Positions 1 through 21,810 of a DNA stretch of 49,259 nucleotides are shown piece after piece; the stretch's first letter is position 1; each line of letters starts with the position of its first letter. The position numbers and the translations under genes are program-made. The DNA is taken from the NCBI GenBank assembly GCA_012730015.1, contig JAAYBT010000089.1:1-49259 (forward strand), in the 5' to 3' direction. This stretch comes from Clostridiaceae bacterium (GTDB lineage Bacteria; Bacillota; Clostridia; Acetivibrionales; DTU013). The notes under the pieces are model-generated. The model was given only the letters and a program-made list of their open reading frames with translations, was not told where the DNA came from and ran no database searches.

Positions 1-378
1 ACCGCCCCGCTTCCCATCGAAGCTGTAGCTTCCATTTGCAAAATCCCATCCACTGAGCTTATCACTGAAAGCCAACGCTGCGCCGGTGGACACATTATCT
101 TTCAAGTCACCCGTAGCATGCATAAGAGCAGTGCGTACAGTTTTGTTCCTATGAAATTCTACAGAACCATCGGTCATCTTATAAAGAACATTATCATGGC
201 GGTCATAAATGATTCCTGACGAAATTGACTTCCCATTCGCGTATAGGTGCTTATTTGCAGGGTAATTAGCCCACTGGGGAGCCTTGGTAAAATACTTGGT
301 CAAAAAGATTGACATTCCGAAGACCAGCGAAACTATTAGAACTAGCAGTACAGCAGCACGTCTTAGAAGTAGCTTCAT
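1..378 (-). CDS. Penicillin-binding protein (class B transpeptidase-like), N-terminal 126 codons; the gene runs off the window start
   Basis: Not in the ORF track because it reaches the edge. My own minus-strand translation from ATG 378-376 reads MKLLLRRAAVLLVLIVSLVFGMSIFLTKYFTKAPQWANYPANKHLYANGKSISSGIIYDRHDNVLYKMTDGSVEFHRNKTVRTALMHATGDLKDNV... and stays open to base 1. It has an N-terminal TM anchor followed by a PBP dimerisation-domain-like pattern. The ATG overlaps the TGA of the upstream SEDS gene (ATGA). Confidence 0.55.
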   Translation of the reverse strand, partial: MKLLLRRAAVLLVLIVSLVFGMSIFLTKYFTKAPQWANYPANKHLYANGKSISSGIIYDRHDNVLYKMTDGSVEFHRNKTVRTALMHATGDLKDNVSTGAALAFSDKLSGWDFANGSYSFDGKRGG

Positions 379-2339
379 TTATGAGCTCCTTTCCTGCCTG
401 TGTCACCTGGCCTATTCTTCGCAATATCGTCTTGCCCGCTAGCCCCCGCAAGCTTATTCTGTCTAATACGGCCGTCGGCAGCCTTGATAAACGCCAGAAG
501 CCCCCAGGATGCAATCATGGAAGAACCCCCATTTGATACAAAGGGGATGGTCACTCCAGTTAGTGGCAAAATATCCATAGAGCCCAGTACATTTAGTCCA
601 GTCTGTATTAGGTAGACAGAGGCCGCGCCGCAGGCTGCGATTGCATAGAAAGAGGATCTGCAGCTTTTCGTAAGAAACACTGCGTAAATCCCAAAGAATA
701 AAATAATCAAAATCGCTATAAGGGCAACAATGAGTCCCCATTCCTCGCATAGCATTCCGAATACCAGATCGGTATCCGCCGCCGCCACATTTACAAGATA
801 TCCATTCCCACCGCCTACACCCAGCAGGCCACCACTTGCGGCATATATCATCGTACGAGTCTGCTGATATCCGGCATCATTGACAAACTCCCACGCATTC
901 CCCCATGTTGCAAAGCGCGTGGCAATATAGGGCAGGAAGACAATCGCGGCTATTGCTCCAAGGACTGCCCCTGAGGATATCAGCGCTATGGTTCGCACGT
1001 CTCCCGAGCGCATAAAAGCAATCACAATGAATGTGCCGAAGAAAACGACCGCCGTGCCCAAATCTCTCATCAATACAAGCGCACAGATACATGCACCCGA
1101 AAATCCAATGAAGGCAGTCATGTTCTGCTTAGTGAGAAGTCTATCCAAGGTGGCAGTACCGGCTAAAACAAATGCAATCTTTACAAATTCAAGCGGCTGA
1201 AAGGTTATAAAGCCAAGGTTAATCCAGTTCTTTGCGCCGTGTCGGGTTTCGCCTATTGTCAGGTTCAATACCAGAAGTAAAATAGCACCGGCCGCAAGAA
1301 CATATTTCAGCTTACGCGCCCTTGCCAGATCATGCATAATAATCCCCAAAGCCGTGTATGCAGCCATACCGAAAACAATGGCCACAAGCTGCTTATACAT
1401 TGAATCGGGAAATGCTGCGGCAACAATTATAAGATTAATGCCGCACAGAAAATAGCTCAACAGCTCAAGCTCGAAGCTTTTCCTGCTGAATCTCCTCGTG
1501 ACGAAATAATAGACAATCTCTATGACAATAAAGGTCGCAAACGCAATCGGAACTGAAGGCTTCTTGTCACTGCCCATTGAAATCCAGATTTGAAGCCCAC
1601 CGAGAAGTTGCGAAAGGACAATTAGCGCCAAAGTGACCCCTGTTTTAAAACTCACGCCTGTAGTGAGATTATTGTTGGCACTATTCTTCTTAGTACCGGT
1701 ATTTGAGGCGCCGCTATTGTCGGCGCTGCTATCTTTGGCGCCATTGCCGGCCAGTGATGTGCCACCGGAGCTTTTGCCGGCTAGTGATGCGCCACCTACA
1801 CTATTACTAGTTTGTGATACCTCACCTGAACTACTATTTGCTGGTGTTGGTGAATTCAGCGTCATCTCAAGGCCTGAAAGTGAAATCACATCGCCAAATA
1901 TCACTGTTGCAGAACCTTCAATCCTCTTGCCATTGATTCTCACACCACCCTTTGAGCTAAGATCGGAAATAGTCCACGCGCCGCTTTGGAATGTGAGTAC
2001 GGCGTGATTTCTCGATGCGAAGGCAAAATCCACCACTATGTCGGACAGCTTGCTTCTTCCCATCGAGTTTTCCCAGTGGTTAAGAGGCTTTCTGGTGCCA
2101 TCGGCCATATCCAGATAGCCCCAAACCGTCTGCGTCTTCTTCACCCGCAAGAGCGGCAGGATGCAGCACAGAAAAATGGCAAGAGACAGTAGCGGAAATA
2201 TCCACCGTAATATCAGAGTATAATATCCGGATACCGCATTGAAATCTAATGATGAGCCGGCGACGCTATCGGCTAAATCATTTAGCAAAGATTGGAGCCA
2301 AGCCCAAAACTGTTTTGCATTTTCTTCAAAAGAATTCAT
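375..2339 (-). CDS. FHA-domain / SEDS (FtsW/RodA/SpoVE-family) fusion protein
   Basis: 654-aa ORF. One N-terminal TM (YTLILRWIFPLLSLAIFLCCILPLL, followed by RVKK). FHA-like core 'SRNHAVLTFQSGAWTISDLSSKGGVRINGKRI...GDVISLSG'. A roughly 70-aa Ser/Gly/Asn/Ala linker. Then about 400 aa of polytopic SEDS region ending in the conserved-type 'PFVSNGGSSMIASWGLL'. Confidence 0.85.
   Translation of the reverse strand: MNSFEENAKQFWAWLQSLLNDLADSVAGSSLDFNAVSGYYTLILRWIFPLLSLAIFLCCILPLLRVKKTQTVWGYLDMADGTRKPLNHWENSMGRSKLSDIVVDFAFASRNHAVLTFQSGAWTISDLSSKGGVRINGKRIEGSATVIFGDVISLSGLEMTLNSPTPANSSSGEVSQTSNSVGGASLAGKSSGGTSLAGNGAKDSSADNSGASNTGTKKNSANNNLTTGVSFKTGVTLALIVLSQLLGGLQIWISMGSDKKPSVPIAFATFIVIEIVYYFVTRRFSRKSFELELLSYFLCGINLIIVAAAFPDSMYKQLVAIVFGMAAYTALGIIMHDLARARKLKYVLAAGAILLLVLNLTIGETRHGAKNWINLGFITFQPLEFVKIAFVLAGTATLDRLLTKQNMTAFIGFSGACICALVLMRDLGTAVVFFGTFIVIAFMRSGDVRTIALISSGAVLGAIAAIVFLPYIATRFATWGNAWEFVNDAGYQQTRTMIYAASGGLLGVGGGNGYLVNVAAADTDLVFGMLCEEWGLIVALIAILIILFFGIYAVFLTKSCRSSFYAIAACGAASVYLIQTGLNVLGSMDILPLTGVTIPFVSNGGSSMIASWGLLAFIKAADGRIRQNKLAGASGQDDIAKNRPGDTGRKGAHK
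1746..1796. repeat. Two 21-nt direct repeats (gccggcYagtgatgYgccacc) at a 30-nt period inside the FHA-SEDS linker
   Basis: Copies at 1746-1766 and 1776-1796 differ at 2 positions. On the minus strand they encode the repeated GG(A/T)SLAG units of the low-complexity linker. Confidence 0.7.
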
Positions 2340-2473
2340 TAAATCGTCCCTTATATAATCTAATAGAATTTAACCAATTTGCCGGTAAATAAACCATTTG
2401 CTGATATACTCATATTTGACTCTAAATTAATAAAAAAGTTTCAGGCTATTATAGTAGCCTCCAAATAGCGCTC

Positions 2474-2502
2474 ATACTACCATTATACTCCCATGGTAGT
2501 AT
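2474..2502. other. Perfect 10-bp inverted repeat (ATACTACCAT n9 ATGGTAGTAT) in a divergent intergenic region
   Basis: Arms at 2474-2483 and 2493-2502. A T-run at 2507-2511 follows, separated by 'agcc'. It lies between the divergent FHA-SEDS and MotA-like genes, so it could be an operator or an orphan hairpin. Confidence 0.4.
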
Positions 2503-2590
2503 AGCCTTTTTCGGCAGGCGGATATATAATCAAATCATCCGGATGCGAGTATTGTAAAACTATATTGTCAAATTATAAGGAGGGTTCATC

Positions 2591-3046
2591 ATGTATCTTT
2601 TAGGAATACTTCTGTATGTCATTTGTCTGGTTTCTTTATCAGCATTAGGTGGTAACCTTTCATATTTTCTAAATTTACCAAGCCTTGTTATAATCCTTGC
2701 GCTGACCCTGCCAATGTTGCTGGCTTCGGGACTTTTATCCGACTTTTTAAAGGGATTCTCACTCATGGTAAAAAAGGTCAACCTCTATTCAGCCATAGAC
2801 CTAAAACGTATTCTTGAGGCAGACAAGCTGGCCATTCAGTCACTTGCAATCGCCGGCTTTGTAGGCACAATAACGGGAATGATTGCAATATTAGCAAATC
2901 TTTCTGAACCCGCAAAGCTGGGGCCATCACTTTCAGTTGCCTTCATCACAGTTCTTTACTCACTAATTTTTATTTCTCTGATTCTACCTGTAAGGGCAAA
3001 GGTTTCATCAATTTTAGTTACCCTTGAGCAGGAGCAGGTTAAATGA
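2591..3046 (+). CDS. Small 4-TM membrane protein, MotA/TolQ/ExbB-like (miniature)
   Basis: 151 aa, SD AAGGAGGG 6 nt upstream. The C-terminal half 'AGFVGTITGMIAILANLSEPAKLGPSLSVAFITVLYSLIFISLILPVRAKV' fits the MotA_ExbB pattern recalled as G-x-x-GT-x-x-G-[ML]-I ... A-x-x-T-x-x-Y-G ... P-x-x-x-K. The cytoplasmic loop between TM2 and TM3 is only about 35 aa. Confidence 0.55.
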   Translation: MYLLGILLYVICLVSLSALGGNLSYFLNLPSLVIILALTLPMLLASGLLSDFLKGFSLMVKKVNLYSAIDLKRILEADKLAIQSLAIAGFVGTITGMIAILANLSEPAKLGPSLSVAFITVLYSLIFISLILPVRAKVSSILVTLEQEQVK

Positions 3047-3705
3047 AAAGACAGTATTATCGGTTGCTGGGATTACTACTCTACATACTTCTACTAAGCG
3101 TGCTGATGGGGTTTGACTGGGCAGAAATGGTTAGGCCGATCCCCCTAATTTCAGTGATACTTGGCATCCTAATACTCACACTGGCTCAACACAAAAGCGG
3201 TATGGGCAGATATGAGGTTTTGACCCATGCCCAGTGGAACTCCTTTATGGCCGGTATAATTGCTTCGCTTTTATCACTCCTTTCAGGCTTCTCACTAGAC
3301 GAAGCGAAGCCCATATCTATCCACATGCTGGCCGATGGGGTGATTCCACTAATCTATGGCAGTATTATTTATATAGTCATCGGGCTGCTGAATCCTGATC
3401 AGGTTCAGCAGTCTAATGAAACAGATAATCCTATGACGGGCAGTGAACAGCTTAATAACACAATTATACCACTATCTGATCCCTTGAAGGCCAATTCCAT
3501 TTTGCTGGCAAAGGGTTTCACTCCCCGAGAATGCCACGTGGCATTTAAGCTAATAGAAAACATTTCTAATAAAGAGATTGCTGAGCAGCTATACATTTCT
3601 GAAGCAACAGTAAAAAAGCATGTCCAAAATATGTTCAAAAAGTGCGGCGCTAACGATCGTCGTGAGTTCATTGCCCTTTATGTCCAATGGATGAAGGAAG
3701 CCTAA
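3043..3705 (+). CDS. Membrane-embedded LuxR/FixJ-type HTH transcription factor; its N-terminal 4-TM domain is paralogous to the preceding MotA-like protein
   Basis: 220 aa. The start overlaps the upstream stop (ATGA). The C-terminus 'FTPRECHVAFKLIENISNKEIAEQLYISEATVKKHVQNMFKKCGANDRREF' is a LuxR-type HTH. The N-terminal 'LLGLLLYILLLSVLMGF...PLISVILGILILTLA' and 'MAGIIASLLSLLSGF...GVIPLIYGSIIYIVIGLL' align by eye with the 2591-3046 product. Confidence 0.7.
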   Translation: MKRQYYRLLGLLLYILLLSVLMGFDWAEMVRPIPLISVILGILILTLAQHKSGMGRYEVLTHAQWNSFMAGIIASLLSLLSGFSLDEAKPISIHMLADGVIPLIYGSIIYIVIGLLNPDQVQQSNETDNPMTGSEQLNNTIIPLSDPLKANSILLAKGFTPRECHVAFKLIENISNKEIAEQLYISEATVKKHVQNMFKKCGANDRREFIALYVQWMKEA

Positions 3706-3739
3706 TTATCAACTCTTATAAAAACCTAATATACTATTT

Positions 3740-3802
3740 TGCAAAGTACGCTTGACATAAAATGCAAAGTGTACTATTCTTACTATGCAAAGTATGCTTT
3801 GC
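3740..3802 (+). promoter_or_regulatory. Three TGCAAAGT boxes at an exact 23-bp period; the last sits in a 16-bp palindrome GCAAAGTATGCTTTGC
   Basis: Boxes at 3740-3747, 3763-3770 and 3786-3793. The palindrome at 3787-3802 pairs at 7 of 8 positions. The boxes flank and overlap a promoter-like TTGACA-17-TATTCT. Confidence 0.5.
3752..3780 (+). promoter_or_regulatory. Candidate sigma-A promoter P1 (TTGACA-17 nt-TATTCT)
   Basis: -35 at 3752-3757 and -10 at 3775-3780. A TGCAAAGT box lies in the spacer and the palindrome lies at the predicted transcription start. Confidence 0.4.
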
Positions 3803-3843
3803 TAATCGGAGGTAAACACCATACAAGCATAGATTGACAACAA

Positions 3844-3872
3844 TTGACTAACCAGACTAGCAACTATATAAT
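3844..3872 (+). promoter_or_regulatory. Consensus sigma-A promoter P2 (TTGACT-17 nt-TATAAT) for kdgK
   Basis: -35 at 3844-3849 and -10 at 3867-3872, about 57 nt upstream of the kdgK ATG. Confidence 0.6.
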
Positions 3873-3928
3873 ATTACGTGTTCCATATTATGGACTAATA
3901 AATAATACTTTCGGTAGGGGGACTTCAC

Positions 3929-4951
3929 ATGGGCAAGATTGTTACGTTCGGAGAAATTATGTTGAGATTGGCTCCTGAAGGTTATTACCGCTTTATTCAG
4001 GCAGACACCTTTGGAGCTACTTATGGCGGGGGCGAGGCAAACGTCGCGGTATCACTGGCCAATTATGGAATGGATGCAAGCTTTGTAACTAAGCTTCCGA
4101 AGCACGAAATCGGCCAGGCAGCGATTAATTCCTTGAGGCAATTCGGTGTAGATACACGAAAAATTGTCAGAGGAGGCTCCAGAGTCGGCATTTATTTCCT
4201 GGAAAAGGGAGCATCCCAACGTGCATCAAAGGTTATTTACGATCGTGCAAATTCCTCAATAGCGACGGCCTCGCAGAGTGATTTTGATTGGGACAGCATT
4301 CTCGACGGCGTACAATGGTTCCATTTCACCGGGATTACTCCGGCGCTCGGAGACAACGTTGCCACTATCTGTCTTGATGCCTGCAAGGCTGCAAAGGCTA
4401 AGGGCATAACCGTAAGCTGCGACCTCAACTACAGGAAAAATCTCTGGAGCCGCGAGAAGGCCGGTCAAGTCATGGCAGAGCTCATGGAATACGTTGACCT
4501 ATGCATTGCCAACGAAGGAGATGCCGGTGATGTGTTCGGAATCTGGGCTGACAACAGCGATGTAACAGGCGGAAGGCTGTCACGGGATGGTTATAAAAGC
4601 GTTGCAAAGAAGCTAGTCGAAAGATTCGGCTTTAAAAAGGTTGCAATAACGCTGCGCTCGTCTATTTCGGCTAACGATAATGATTGGGCAGCAATGCTTT
4701 ACGATGGCAAGGAGTATTATTTCTCCAAGAGCTATTCCATACATATAGTTGACCGTGTCGGAGGCGGTGACAGCTTCGGTGCCGGACTTATCTACTCTTT
4801 GTTAAATGGAAGCGAGCCTCAGGAGGCTGTTGAATTCGCCGTTGCCGCAAGCTGCCTTAAGCATACTATCGAGGGCGACTTCAATCAGGTTTCCCTGGAT
4901 GAAGTGAAAAAGCTAATGGGCGGAGACGGTACAGGCCGGGTGCAAAGATAA
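3929..4951 (+). CDS. kdgK: 2-dehydro-3-deoxygluconokinase (PfkB-family sugar kinase)
   Basis: 340 aa. The N-terminus 'KIVTFGEIMLRLAPEGYYRFIQADTFGATYGGGEANVAVSLANYG' is typical of KdgK. PfkB ATP-site motif 'DRVGGGDSFGAGL'. SD GGGGGA. Confidence 0.85.
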   Translation: MGKIVTFGEIMLRLAPEGYYRFIQADTFGATYGGGEANVAVSLANYGMDASFVTKLPKHEIGQAAINSLRQFGVDTRKIVRGGSRVGIYFLEKGASQRASKVIYDRANSSIATASQSDFDWDSILDGVQWFHFTGITPALGDNVATICLDACKAAKAKGITVSCDLNYRKNLWSREKAGQVMAELMEYVDLCIANEGDAGDVFGIWADNSDVTGGRLSRDGYKSVAKKLVERFGFKKVAITLRSSISANDNDWAAMLYDGKEYYFSKSYSIHIVDRVGGGDSFGAGLIYSLLNGSEPQEAVEFAVAASCLKHTIEGDFNQVSLDEVKKLMGGDGTGRVQR

Positions 4952-10214: not shown

Positions 10215-11723
10215 CTATTCTCCAGCCGGTTGATTGTCCGCCAGATTTACCACCTTCGCAGTTGCGCTCTCAACCTCTATCCCGATTCGGCGGTTAATCG
10301 CTGCGGCATCCTTTATGTATGCTCCGTTGGCATCTGTATCTGGAATAATCAATTCGCTTTCACCACGCCCATCAGCAGAAAAAGTCCAGTCGACAGCACC
10401 GTTTTTATTTGCCCAATTCTCAAACCAGCTTCTCACTGCCTCGGCCCTTTCCTTTGACAGCCTCAGGTTCTCTTCGGCTGTTCCGCTGCTGTCCGTATGA
10501 CCGACAAATTTGATTGAACACTTGCTGTAATTAAAGGTTAACTTCTTTGCAAAGGCCTCAAGCCTAAGAGCAGCTTCGCCCTTTAGCTGTGAGCTGCCTA
10601 AGCCGAACATCGCATCGCTGGGCAGTGAATTTGGCATGCGCATTTCCGATACCGCCTCGAAGGGTTCTGCTCCCGGGAGCCTCCACAAATCAAGCCTGCC
10701 ATCCTTTCTCGCAACAGCAAGATGTCTGCTGTCGGGAGTAAAGGCAAGCTCCACGATTGTGTCTGTATCATCGTCACTAAATGTCTGATCCAATGTGTAT
10801 AGCAAAGTATGTGTTGAAACATCCCAAATTGTTACAGCCTTTAACGATGCAACCGCAAGTAGGCTACTGTCAGGAGAAAAGTCCATATCCCTATAACCAT
10901 CAGGAATTGAAAGATCTGCCAGCGGCGAAGCTGCACCAGACATCCACAGACGCACCAGATGCTTGTACTCTTCCTTTATTGCTGCGGCCATTATTTTCCC
11001 ATCAGGTGAGAATTGAAAAGGGTCCTTTATTCCCCCTAAATAATTATTTAGCGTGATTGAGTGAACTACCTCTTTTGATTCAATATCCCAAATGGTAACT
11101 GTACCTTTATCTGTCCACTGGGAAGCAGCGAGTAATTTGCCTGACTGATCGTATGTCAGCGAAGTAATCCAATCAGTACTGGGCATTTTCAGGGCAGCTA
11201 GCTGCTCGCCGCTTTTGATATCCCAAAGTCTCACTTTTCCGTCACTGTTTCCCGTAGCCATTTGTCCGCCGGACGAAAAGGCTACCCGACTACTGCTAAA
11301 GCCATTGTGTAATTCACGCAGCTTGTTTCCATTGGCAGTATCAGTCAACCATATACCATCCATATCGAAACCAACGCCGAGAAGCGCCCCGTCGGGTGAG
11401 AAAGCAAGATCATCAGTCATGTTTTGATAAACATATACTTCGTCGAGTAGTCCATCTGCAATCCTGTGACAATAAACAGTGCGGTTTTCACCTATGGCCA
11501 CATTTCCATCCGCAGATATGGCCAGACTGATAAGTTCATTCTCGTGCTTCACAGTCCATAGCTGCTCCGGGTTCTCTACAACGGCCTGCTCCGTCACGTC
11601 ATCAGATGGCTTGTCCGGTATATTGTCCTCCTTGTCGGCACAGGCAGAGGCTAAAATCAACATGATAACCAATAGTGACAAAATGAGATAATGCTTAAAA
11701 GTTCTTCTTTGGAAATGTTTCAT
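10215..11723 (-). CDS. Lipoprotein with a WD40 beta-propeller and a C-terminal OmpA/MotB-like peptidoglycan-binding domain
   Basis: 502 aa. Signal and lipobox-like 'LVIMLILASAC'. WD repeats end in 'VRLWDIKSGE', 'VTIWDIESKE', 'VRLWMSG', 'VTIWDVSTHT' and 'LDLWRLPG'. C-terminal OmpA_C motif 'FVGHTDSSGTAEENLRLSKERAEAVRSWF'. Confidence 0.8.
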   Translation of the reverse strand: MKHFQRRTFKHYLILSLLVIMLILASACADKEDNIPDKPSDDVTEQAVVENPEQLWTVKHENELISLAISADGNVAIGENRTVYCHRIADGLLDEVYVYQNMTDDLAFSPDGALLGVGFDMDGIWLTDTANGNKLRELHNGFSSSRVAFSSGGQMATGNSDGKVRLWDIKSGEQLAALKMPSTDWITSLTYDQSGKLLAASQWTDKGTVTIWDIESKEVVHSITLNNYLGGIKDPFQFSPDGKIMAAAIKEEYKHLVRLWMSGAASPLADLSIPDGYRDMDFSPDSSLLAVASLKAVTIWDVSTHTLLYTLDQTFSDDDTDTIVELAFTPDSRHLAVARKDGRLDLWRLPGAEPFEAVSEMRMPNSLPSDAMFGLGSSQLKGEAALRLEAFAKKLTFNYSKCSIKFVGHTDSSGTAEENLRLSKERAEAVRSWFENWANKNGAVDWTFSADGRGESELIIPDTDANGAYIKDAAAINRRIGIEVESATAKVVNLADNQPAGE

Positions 11724-20010: not shown

Positions 20011-21810
20011 TTACTTACCCGCTGCAGCATTCTTGACATCCAGTTCGATCTGCCACTTAGCAAGGTCGAACTCAACCAGTTCTTCGTAGCCATTACCAAT
20101 CATCTGCTCTACCATCTCATCCCACAAAGCATCGAATTTAGCTTCGCTGCCGCAGAAGATCATCTTCCAGGAGTATTCCTCGAGAACCTCTCCGCAGGAG
20201 TTACGATAGACAGCAACATCGTTCGTGTCGCTTGGCAGCGATACGCTGACATTCGGGCTAACCAGCAGTACGTTGTTCTTCTTCATCCACTCTGCAGGTT
20301 CAGCTGCGCCGAACTTAGCAGCCCAGTCTTTCTTCATCTGGGTCTGTATAGATGCCTTGTATGAGCTCCAATAATCCTTGCTGTAGGGCTCACCGGTATT
20401 CGGATTAGTGCTTATAGCATCAACGAGCCACTGATTGATTGCATTGTTACCATCGTTGAATCCGCCACCGCCGAACTCTTCAGGGACAGGAAGATTATCC
20501 ATCAATGCGTTTTCGTTCATAATGGTGAATTTTCCGTCAGGGCCAACTGTATAGTTGAAGCCTTCAATACCATTATGAGCAAATTGCAACCCTTCAGGGC
20601 TTGCATACCAATCAAGGAATTCCATAATTCTTGCATACTTCTCATCGTCAACACCCGAGCCTACACCAAAGACACGACCGCTGCCATAGTATGTATCGGA
20701 ATCCTGATAATACTTCTGATCCTTTACAGGAATAAAGATATACGCTGAGCCATCTGCAAGCTTGTCAGCCGTATTCCAGAAACCAACCTGCCAGCTGTAC
20801 CAGAGTAAATGAACCTGGCCGGCTGTAATCTTCGGATATACTGCGTTCCAATCCTGATCCTTGGAGTCAGGATCTACAAGACCTCTCTGCTGTGCATCAA
20901 ACAGGAAGTGCAGCATCTTGTAGTATGTTCCGGATTTGTCGGTTAACTTATAGAAAGTTCCGTCCGGCTTTAATACAACAGAGCCTTTAATTTTCTCTCC
21001 ATACCAGGTTGTCAGCTGAACAACATTTGCAATACCCAACATATTGTCGCCGCCATCCCAGTCAGGCCACAGGGTCATTGCATAGCACGGATCACCGGCT
21101 TCATTCTTCGGATGAATTTTCTGCATTTCTGCAAGAGCGTCCAGAAGTCCGTCCAAATCAGCGATATCAGGAGCTCCGATTTGGTTATACAAATCCCAGC
21201 GAAGCAAAGGACTTGAATAAATAACATCCTGTGAATATGATGTCGGAGAAGTGTTTGTCATCTGACAGGGTAACCCAAAGATTTTGCCTGCGTCATTTCC
21301 CGGTAAGCCTTTATTGAATACTTCGATCTGATCCATATAATCCATCAGGTTAGGCCATTGTGTAATTTCAGCACTGATATCCTTTATTAATCCATTCTGA
21401 TAACAGTCTGCAAAATCTGTAGCCTCAAGGATAACGATATCACCCAGATTACCAGAGCTGATACGTGTCTGGTATAATGCGTCTCCGGCTACCTGTGGCG
21501 CAAGGATATTGAGTGCCAGATTAAATCTGTCCTTTATAACCTTGTCAAACCATCCGCTTTGCAGTCCCTGATAATTTGCTGCCACATCATAAATGTCAAT
21601 TGTCAGCTGTTTATCATGAGATATAGCTGCGGCATCCCCGTTTTCGGTCTTACTTCCGCTGTCCGTCTCAGTCTTGCTTCCGCTGTCTGCCGGTGTCTGA
21701 GCCGTTGTAGCGTCCTTGTTATCGCCCGCAGTATTCCCGCAGCCGGTTAAAAGAGCTACCACAACAAGAGACATTACCAGCAGCAATGATATTACCTTTT
21801 TGAACCCCAT
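20011..21810 (-). CDS. Extracellular solute-binding lipoprotein of a carbohydrate ABC importer (large LplA-like type)
   Basis: 599 aa. Lipobox 'ALLTGC'. A Thr/Ser/Asp-rich linker with duplicated 'DSGSKTE'. SD GGGAGG. Confidence 0.8.
   Translation of the reverse strand: MGFKKVISLLLVMSLVVVALLTGCGNTAGDNKDATTAQTPADSGSKTETDSGSKTENGDAAAISHDKQLTIDIYDVAANYQGLQSGWFDKVIKDRFNLALNILAPQVAGDALYQTRISSGNLGDIVILEATDFADCYQNGLIKDISAEITQWPNLMDYMDQIEVFNKGLPGNDAGKIFGLPCQMTNTSPTSYSQDVIYSSPLLRWDLYNQIGAPDIADLDGLLDALAEMQKIHPKNEAGDPCYAMTLWPDWDGGDNMLGIANVVQLTTWYGEKIKGSVVLKPDGTFYKLTDKSGTYYKMLHFLFDAQQRGLVDPDSKDQDWNAVYPKITAGQVHLLWYSWQVGFWNTADKLADGSAYIFIPVKDQKYYQDSDTYYGSGRVFGVGSGVDDEKYARIMEFLDWYASPEGLQFAHNGIEGFNYTVGPDGKFTIMNENALMDNLPVPEEFGGGGFNDGNNAINQWLVDAISTNPNTGEPYSKDYWSSYKASIQTQMKKDWAAKFGAAEPAEWMKKNNVLLVSPNVSVSLPSDTNDVAVYRNSCGEVLEEYSWKMIFCGSEAKFDALWDEMVEQMIGNGYEELVEFDLAKWQIELDVKNAAAGK

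Follow-up and report, generated by a model that had tools for sequence, protein, structure and literature searches.

The window analysed here is a stretch of 49,259 nucleotides (nt) from a Clostridiaceae bacterium (contig JAAYBT010000089.1, positions 1 to 49,259 of the forward strand; GenBank assembly GCA_012730015.1). Near its left end lie two overlapping genes, A and B: the product of A is a miniature relative of MotA, and that of B is a four-helix membrane module joined by a flexible linker to a LuxR-type helix-turn-helix (HTH) domain. We lean towards the view that the two constitute a self-contained, two-gene membrane signalling cassette. The pair comprises the following features, with lengths in amino acids (aa):

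2578-2585, plus strand: strong Shine-Dalgarno sequence of gene A, AAGGAGGG, read from the sequence; AGGAGG stands at the same place in related loci
2591-3046, plus strand: gene A, 151 aa, a miniature MotA with four membrane helices (Pfam, profile comparison, AlphaFold2, Foldseek)
3043-3705, plus strand: gene B, 220 aa, a membrane-anchored LuxR-type regulator whose start overlaps the stop of A (ATGA)
3043-3396, plus strand: B residues 1-118, a four-helix membrane module, apparently diverged MotA-like (profile-profile comparison)
3397-3480, plus strand: B residues 119-146, a flexible and poorly conserved linker (model confidence, relatives)
3481-3702, plus strand: B residues 147-220, a NarL/GerE-type HTH DNA-binding domain (Pfam, NCBIfam, Foldseek)

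An earlier note on this DNA, made from the letters alone, had described two open reading frames (ORFs) overlapping by ATGA. These are present exactly where it placed them – the shared stop and start occupy 3043-3046 – and A and B are probably translationally coupled. Neither is a chance ORF, since both belong to conserved families whose full-length homologues reach down to ~30% identity.

The proposal that A is a miniature MotA, made on the strength of a GT..G...Y...P...K pattern, is borne out at the level of family, profile and fold. A scores 32.6 bits against the Pfam MotA_ExbB model (PF01618; cut-off 22.9), the NCBIfam PomA, MotA and MotP models match it within the block formed by transmembrane helices 3 and 4 (TM3-TM4), and a profile of the A family (28 members) finds the solved MotA and PomA chains at E values of 8e-20 to 1e-7 (8e-20 for MotA 8gqy). 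The profile alignment falls into two blocks, A 3-83 with residues 12-91 of Aquifex MotA and A 88-140 with residues 163-216, from which it follows that A keeps both membrane hairpins and lacks the ~70-residue cytoplasmic insert as well as the C-terminal tail. The insert contains the part of MotA that touches the rotor. In A, TM2 and TM3 are joined by a loop of ~36 residues, in line with the reduced cytoplasmic loop of the earlier note, and TM3-TM4 is the best conserved block of the protein (conditional E ~5e-15 to solved MotA/PomA). The AlphaFold2 model of A is of good quality (predicted local distance difference test score, pLDDT, 87.7; predicted TM-score, pTM, 0.79), and when it was compared with the Protein Data Bank (PDB) by Foldseek the top 25 matches were all MotA, PomA or TolQ, with query-normalised TM-scores of 0.62-0.75 for the best superpositions. 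Its four membrane helices, TM3 and TM4 being long, conform to the fold of MotA. The residues of the pattern – G92-T93..G96, Y123, P133 and K136 – are present, and the only two columns invariant across the family are Y123 and P133, both in TM4. By sequence and by predicted fold A is a genuine MotA/PomA homologue.

The C-terminus of B had been called a canonical LuxR HTH, and rightly so: residues 159-210 match the GerE/LuxR HTH model (PF00196, E 3e-14, 52.8 bits against a cut-off of 23.5), the nearest NCBIfam models are the output domains of CsgD, NarL and NarP, and Foldseek places the modelled domain on the DNA-binding domains of NarL, GerE, LiaR and VraR with target-normalised TM-scores of 0.8-0.9 and root-mean-square deviations of 0.8-1.7 Å. 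Within the recognition helix the motif TVKKH(I/V)QN is invariant. No match to a receiver (Response_reg) domain was found in B, the N-terminus being taken up by the membrane module instead. Judged by its domain content B is a LuxR/GerE-family regulator and not a response regulator, with neither a receiver domain nor a linked kinase; an HTH and four predicted membrane helices in one polypeptide, again with no linked kinase, place it in the class of transmembrane transcription regulators.

In the model of B (pLDDT 83.6) four long helices span residues 2-22, 32-48, 56-84 and 93-116, and residues 125-140, ahead of the HTH, are disordered (pLDDT <50). Linkers across the family run from ~25 to >150 residues and are acidic and of low complexity; the longer relatives differ from B in linker length only. 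The distribution of lysine and arginine across 49 homologues puts the N-terminus, the TM2-TM3 loop and the C-terminus of B in the cytoplasm, and the same procedure gives the same outcome for A: both proteins are N-in and C-in, and the outer loops of each are only ~9-10 residues long. The positions conserved in the B module are G41, L45, T46, Q49, N66, P102, Y105 and G106. A word-indexed search returned ~66 full-length homologues of B, and a search of 1.84 billion representatives with the B-module profile returned 181 proteins (clusters at 50% identity), nearly all of them 190-250 aa long with the module at the N-terminus. The GerE HTH, and no other output domain, is present in 116 of 117 B-module representatives. 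The named relatives encountered all belong to the Clostridia, bar one metagenome bin labelled Pseudomonadota.

A critical issue is whether the membrane modules of A and B share an origin, as an alignment made by eye had suggested. BLASTP detected no similarity between A and B, the B membrane module has no Pfam or NCBIfam match, and hhalign with shallow alignments gave P values of 0.014-0.03 (probability 3%). Foldseek with the whole B model is dominated by HTH matches and silent on the membrane module. Once the B-module alignment had been deepened to 117 sequences, hhalign gave a probability of 93.4% (P 2.5e-7) against the A family, and a second profile-profile comparison of the A family with the deep B alignment gave 94.5% (P 8e-8). 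The alignments extend over 115-122 columns and are co-linear over all four helices; the observed score of 43.5 compares with 12 for reversed profiles and 23.5 for the best of 30 block shuffles. Set against a full-length MotA alignment, the B module reaches a probability of 56% (P 1e-4); that alignment has one large gap only, which coincides exactly with the cytoplasmic insert of MotA. The hidden Markov model of the B module, moreover, matches some A-type proteins directly (E 1.4e-11 per comparison). Against the PDB the B-module profile gave sub-threshold matches only: PomA, which follows one unrelated protein, has an E value of 0.7 and is co-linear over TM3-TM4, and may lend slight further support to a kinship between B and MotA. 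The alignment by eye thus stands as one of distant homology, and neither profile nor structure searches assigned the membrane modules to some unrelated family. We take the membrane module of B to be, in all likelihood, a real but distant homologue of A and of MotA.

The two genes are also constant neighbours. Phylogenetic co-occurrence had been put forward as a check on the pair, and A proves to lie directly upstream of B in all 22 other distinct loci examined (L001-L018, the distant relatives L084 and L087, L210, and Acetoanaerobium noterae DSL2). In L001-L018 both genes are on one strand, and wherever their starts are clear the gap is -4 to +15 nt. Defluviitalea, Desnuesiella and Fusibacter are the sources of these loci, together with metagenome bins that carry the labels Ruminiclostridium, Christensenellaceae, Lutisporaceae, Acidaminobacteraceae and Lachnospiraceae. 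The pair at L210 was reached by starting from A-type proteins, and that of A. noterae DSL2 (NZ_CP154629.1, near 2,565,600-2,566,700) belongs to a cultured strain. The accession of the latter is labelled plasmid pTPELB2; at 2.63 Mb, with 4 annotated features, it looks chromosome-sized. At L017:6001-6401 (an Eubacteriales bin) B is split into two overlapping frames beside an intact A, through either a frameshift (and hence possibly a pseudogene) or an assembly error.

Beyond the two genes the flanks vary. When ORFs within 3.5 kb of the pair were clustered for 21 loci, no family occurred in more than four, which leaves no conserved third gene; nor is any kinase or protease gene conserved within that distance. 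The earlier note had remarked on the absence of a MotB/ExbD/TolR partner, and none is found in the operon, in the 49-kb window, or as a conserved neighbour at the 21 loci. The window's sole OmpA-domain protein, encoded at 10215-11723, was considered as a stand-in for MotB and discarded, being a WD40 lipoprotein that has a signal peptide, is not MotB-like and is unlinked to the pair elsewhere. This protein (minus strand, 502 aa), a predicted lipoprotein that combines a WD40 beta-propeller with a C-terminal OmpA-type peptidoglycan-binding domain, is unusual for a Gram-positive-type genome. A mobile or defence origin of the pair was likewise rejected: viral contigs hold no full-length relative of it, PADLOC defence models, a set relevant here because the Zorya protein ZorA is MotA-like, give no match for A and HTH-level matches only for B, so that no PADLOC family is indicated, and the sole 'plasmid' match is the 2.63-Mb replicon.

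What does travel with the pair is a short element upstream of A, at 2475-2501, inside a region (2470-2505) that the earlier note had named as a second DNA on which to test binding of the HTH. It is made up, together with the adjoining promoter, as follows:

2475-2481, plus strand: direct half-site on the upstream side, TACTACC, which precedes the next half-site by one helical turn (11 bp); conserved in related loci
2486-2501, plus strand: 7-2-7 inverted repeat TACTCCC-AT-GGTAGTA, core of the predicted operator for the B HTH
2525-2530, plus strand: predicted -10 hexamer TATAAT of the A-B promoter; its spacing is conserved across loci

The half-sites in the window are TACTACC (2475-2481), TACTCCC (2486-2492) and GGTAGTA (2495-2501). 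Upstream of A in every one of the close loci there are two direct half-sites and then an inverted copy; 11 sites yield the consensus aTACTcC-caAAT-TACTCCt-NN-GGGAGTAT, with the core TACTCCY-NN-GGGAGTA. In 237 kb of sequence (the window plus related loci) the pattern TACTCC-N3-6-GGAGTA, allowing at most one mismatch, occurs 12 times against a shuffle mean of ~1.4, and all 12 occurrences stand just upstream of gene A. Distant loci have the same layout with variant half-sites – TTACACC in L086 and TATCCC-type in L007, L012 and L015. The half-site also fits TACYYMT, which we take to be the heptamer consensus of NarL.

The distance from the right operator arm to the best -10-like hexamer is exactly 23 nt in 13 of the 21 loci, and two further loci have TAATAT at that spacing. 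The 7-2-7 core is thereby placed just upstream of, or overlapping, a poor -35 element and is centred near -44; in the window the -35 position (2502-2507) reads TAGCCT, a poor match that abuts the operator. NarL activates from 7-2-7 sites that abut the -35 box and are centred at -44.5 (PMC7419079). No DNA-binding protein other than B accompanies the site, from which we infer that B binds the operator at 2475-2501 and autoregulates the operon. The fixed spacing and the weak -35 box make activation, on the analogy of NarL, more likely than repression. A reading of the hairpin at 2474-2502 as a terminator was rejected, given that no same-strand upstream gene ends there and that what is conserved in the element is its half-sites, with variable spacers, and not a stem. 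No Rfam family or tRNA was matched in 2200-4100, which leaves a reading of the leader as an RNA element unsupported. A further sequence, cagaactacgaaacctcagcctggtTTACTCCGAACGGAGTATGGcaaatgacag, is identical on many metagenome contigs (L092, L098, L105, L128 and ~17 more); it is evidently a conserved gene or element of a common organism, unrelated to the operator.

The earlier note had proposed a hetero-oligomeric complex, possibly responsive to ions or to the state of the membrane, and both ideas are plausible. The mechanism that we envisage begins with assembly. A and B would associate through their MotA-type helices, possibly as a mixed A-B ring by analogy with the pentamers of MotA. Because A and B have nearly no extracytoplasmic surface, the cue would be sensed within or at the membrane, and might be the state of the membrane, a gradient of ions, a ligand embedded in the lipid or another protein acting as partner. 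Such a signal would then alter the pairing and the DNA reach of the tethered B HTH domains on the three-half-site operator, and B would bind this operator, abutting the -35 element of its own promoter, most likely activating transcription as NarL does from sites near -44.

Mini-MotA proteins are found with transcription factors in other arrangements as well, and these bear on the proposal, each being known from one example (P0102, P0105, L211 and L212). P0102 (L086:4001-5329) is a 303-aa tandem A-A fusion (modules 3-137 and 163-302), followed at once by a B-type gene, truncated where the contig stops, and preceded by TTACACC repeats instead of TACTCC. An A-A fusion before B may indicate that each complex contains an even number of A modules; together with one B it would fit an assembly of four A to one B, or of two A to three B, the latter matching the three half-sites. 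P0105 (L085:4001-4759; 252 aa) has an N-terminal XRE-type HTH and an A-type module (107-247), with no adjoining B-type gene; in layout it looks like the BcrR-like membrane regulators. At L212:1205-2295 the gene for mini-MotA P0101 (161 aa) shares 4 nt with the beginning of a gene for a 202-aa LuxR-type protein, whose two N-terminal membrane helices are not MotA-like and are missed by the B-module profile. Finally, at L211:844-2207 an extracytoplasmic function (ECF) sigma gene is followed by the gene for a 110-aa single-helix protein, by mini-MotA P0104 and then by NHL-repeat/DUF5128 proteins, a row that is possibly a sigma / anti-sigma / mini-MotA module. The XRE fusion, the two-helix LuxR protein and the ECF sigma context, taken as independent links between mini-MotA proteins and transcription factors, speak for a signalling role of the A-B pair.

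It is tempting to generalise, and to suppose that a mini-MotA without a MotB axle is an unrecognised membrane-sensing partner of transcription regulators throughout the Bacillota. We regard so broad a claim as doubtful at present. Were it correct, the ring would couple a cue intrinsic to the membrane (such as its potential, its lipid state or a leak of ions) directly to activation of the promoter; the mini-MotA module would have been recruited independently by XRE fusions, two-TM LuxR proteins and ECF sigma/single-TM pairs; and the single-TM or two-TM partner might occupy the centre of the ring, the usual place of MotB.

Several observations weigh against the signalling cassette as we have drawn it. 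The homology of the B module is argued from profile-profile scores, and PF01618 matches neither B nor any of the 117 B-family representatives; the arrangement at L212, moreover, implies that MotA-likeness of the LuxR partner may be dispensable. There is no conserved acidic residue in the membrane helices of either family, which argues against ion translocation of the kind that depends on the aspartate of MotB. Binding of B to the operator is deduced from co-inheritance, and an operator that abuts the -35 box could equally mediate repression. Further target sites did not emerge from the DNA surveyed: no second operator was found in the 237 kb of window and flanks, and in the A. noterae replicon, of which 634 kb (24%) was covered, no site but that of the cassette itself has the promoter geometry, the 8 loose operator matches there comparing with ~5 in shuffles and 5 of them lying inside ORFs. 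A metagenome scan for TTACTCCNNNNGGAGTATGG returned at least 120 stretches, and among the matches listed one stands upstream of an A-B pair while the others looked unrelated.

The most substantial alternative, which we nonetheless consider unlikely, is that B is a stand-alone transmembrane regulator and A a regulated effector – a small channel or a membrane-stabilising protein – with no complex between them and no functional consequence of their shared module ancestry. The sole conserved operator precedes A, which makes A the one certain regulated product; the LuxR partner at L212 is not MotA-like; and stand-alone regulators have precedents in BcrR and other transmembrane regulators (PMC10269533) and in the 12-TM LuxRs (PMC9734109). 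However, B shares the promoter of A, and at every locus their frames overlap or nearly abut, as is typical of subunits made in a fixed ratio. Both proteins keep the MotA-type helices that mediate ring assembly in MotA, and the A-A fusion before B, like the HTH-A fusion, points to a physical coupling with DNA-binding domains. Regulated proteolysis, which strikes us as improbable, would have B held inactive in the membrane with A as its gatekeeper, until a cut in the linker or membrane module freed a soluble HTH fragment, as in membrane-tethered anti-sigma/sigma systems. The disordered, poorly conserved linker of variable length between module and HTH would suit such a scheme, as would the mini-MotA that sits in an ECF sigma/single-TM operon, a context in which regulated proteolysis is common. 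Yet no protease gene is linked to the pair at the 21 loci, the linker has no conserved cleavage motif, and its long acidic versions suit a tether that lets the HTH reach DNA. ToxR, CadC, BcrR and the 12-TM LuxRs, for their part, are reported to act from their place in the membrane (PMC10269533, PMC9734109).

There remains the motor. That A, alone or together with B, forms the ring of a true 5:2 ion motor, with its axle (for example a MotB/ExbD/TolR paralogue) encoded elsewhere and with ion flow setting the activity of the HTH, we hold to be very improbable. It is true that TM3-TM4, the part of the ring that surrounds MotB, is best conserved in A, with the proline and tyrosine of TM4 invariant, and that the organism is probably motile (the window encodes a methyl-accepting chemotaxis protein, MCP), so that MotB genes are to be expected elsewhere in its genome. 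But no axle gene is linked to the pair at 21 loci whose neighbourhoods are otherwise unrelated, A is without the cytoplasmic domain through which rotation is passed on to a target, and all described members co-encode ring and axle, the axle with its mid-membrane aspartate (PMC9389320). With no MotB-like axle, no conserved acidic residue in the membrane and no torque-transmitting domain in A, the pair is unlikely to be a 5:2 motor of the classical, ion-driven kind.

The accepted picture of MotA-family proteins is one of rings whose rotation about a MotB-type axle performs mechanical work. A belongs to the MotA/ExbB/TolQ family, yet it lacks the two features that define a stator or 5:2 motor, namely the axle partner and the cytoplasmic domain. 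With MotA and PomA, which have been solved as MotA5MotB2 and PomA5PomB2, it shares the four-helix topology, the TM1-2 and TM3-4 blocks, the tyrosine and proline of TM4 and the predicted fold; the membrane module of B appears to be a more distant relative. The differences are that A is without the ~70-residue insert and the C-terminal tail, that there is no MotB or PomB and no flagellar linkage, and that a DNA-binding domain is attached to one of the two modules. ExbB-ExbD, TolQ-TolR and AglR-AglQS belong to the same superfamily, and TolQ and ExbB are among the weaker fold matches of A. In every one of the 5:2 motors the ring protein has a single-helix partner bearing a mid-membrane aspartate (PMC9389320); there is no such partner here, and A is nearer to the MotA/PomA branch than to ExbB/TolQ.

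On the DNA side the closest parallels are NarL, NarP and GerE. The HTH of B is like their DNA-binding domains in models and structures, and its predicted 7-2-7 operator abuts the -35 box in the same way (PMC7419079). Unlike NarL and NarP, B has no receiver domain or kinase partner and is anchored in the membrane, and its operator has an extra direct half-site one helical turn upstream.

The earlier note went on to suppose that the pair represents a membrane-embedded one-component system of a kind not yet described, a supposition that survives in part. BcrR, ToxR and CadC, like B, hold a DNA-binding domain and a membrane anchor in one protein and work without phosphotransfer; they differ in that the DNA-binding fold is N-terminal and of the XRE or winged-helix type. 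BcrR has four membrane helices, and we know of no MotA homology or MotA-like partner for any of the three. Transmembrane one-component regulators such as these are well established (PMC10269533), and the membrane-spanning LuxR-type activators of Coriobacteriia/Eggerthella (DadR, CadR and HcdR) have 10-12 helices and a C-terminal LuxR HTH (PMC9734109). With the latter B has in common an N-terminal multi-helix domain and the C-terminal LuxR HTH. Those proteins, however, stand beside the metabolic enzymes that they control, and no MotA similarity or small partner has been reported for them, whereas in B the helices are four and MotA-like, a mini-MotA is the obligate neighbour, and the flanks vary. 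Given the BcrR-type (PMC10269533) and 10-12-TM LuxR (PMC9734109) regulators, the general kind is not new, LuxR-type members included; what is new is the MotA-derived module with its obligate mini-MotA partner. The literature, in which our coverage of subscription journals was incomplete, yielded no MotA-derived sensor module, no mini-MotA partner and no MotB-less MotA tied to transcription.

If the signalling cassette is real, a conserved derivative of MotA that has neither axle nor cytoplasmic domain and is tied to a DNA-binding domain would be a case of this fold being used for signalling and not for force. The membrane-bound one-component regulators would also gain a family that exposes essentially no surface outside the cell, and thus a set of candidate intramembrane sensors; as a promoter-regulator pair the cassette could become a compact reporter module. 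Since the cassette is small, has its own operator and is present in cultured A. noterae DSL2, these hypotheses are directly testable.

Taken as a whole, the window has the gene content that is usual among those Clostridia that form spores and degrade polysaccharides. Encoded in it are sugar ABC transporters, GH39, GH31, GH127 and arabinofuranosidase enzymes and two-component systems, together with the MCP, a LacI regulator, CotF and a peptidase with an SLH domain. Beside sugar ABC permease genes there is an ORF of 599 aa (20011-21810, minus strand) with no Pfam match at E 1e-5 or 1e-6. To the left of the pair, divergent from the A-B promoter region, is the FHA-FtsW/RodA gene (375-2339, minus strand), the product of which (654 aa) has an N-terminal FHA domain, a long low-complexity stretch rich in serine, glycine and asparagine, and a C-terminal FtsW/RodA/SpoVE domain.

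The right-hand neighbour is a gene for a PfkB-family sugar kinase (3929-4951), and it is in front of this gene that the earlier note had seen its obvious target for B, at 3740-3802. Here three direct copies of TGCAAAGTRYRC, within 3740-3797, begin at 3740, 3763 and 3786 with a period of 23 bp and take the form TGCAAAGT(ACGC/GTAC/ATGC), the last copy making a small palindrome, GCAAAGTATGCTTTGC. The copies overlap a good sigma-70-like promoter of the kinase gene, TTGACA-N17-TATTCT. That target does not hold up: the motif differs from the A-B operator, is absent elsewhere in the window and is confined to this locus, and the PfkB gene that it precedes is unlinked to the pair elsewhere, every other locus having a different gene downstream. 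These downstream repeats are more likely the site of a regulator of sugar metabolism.

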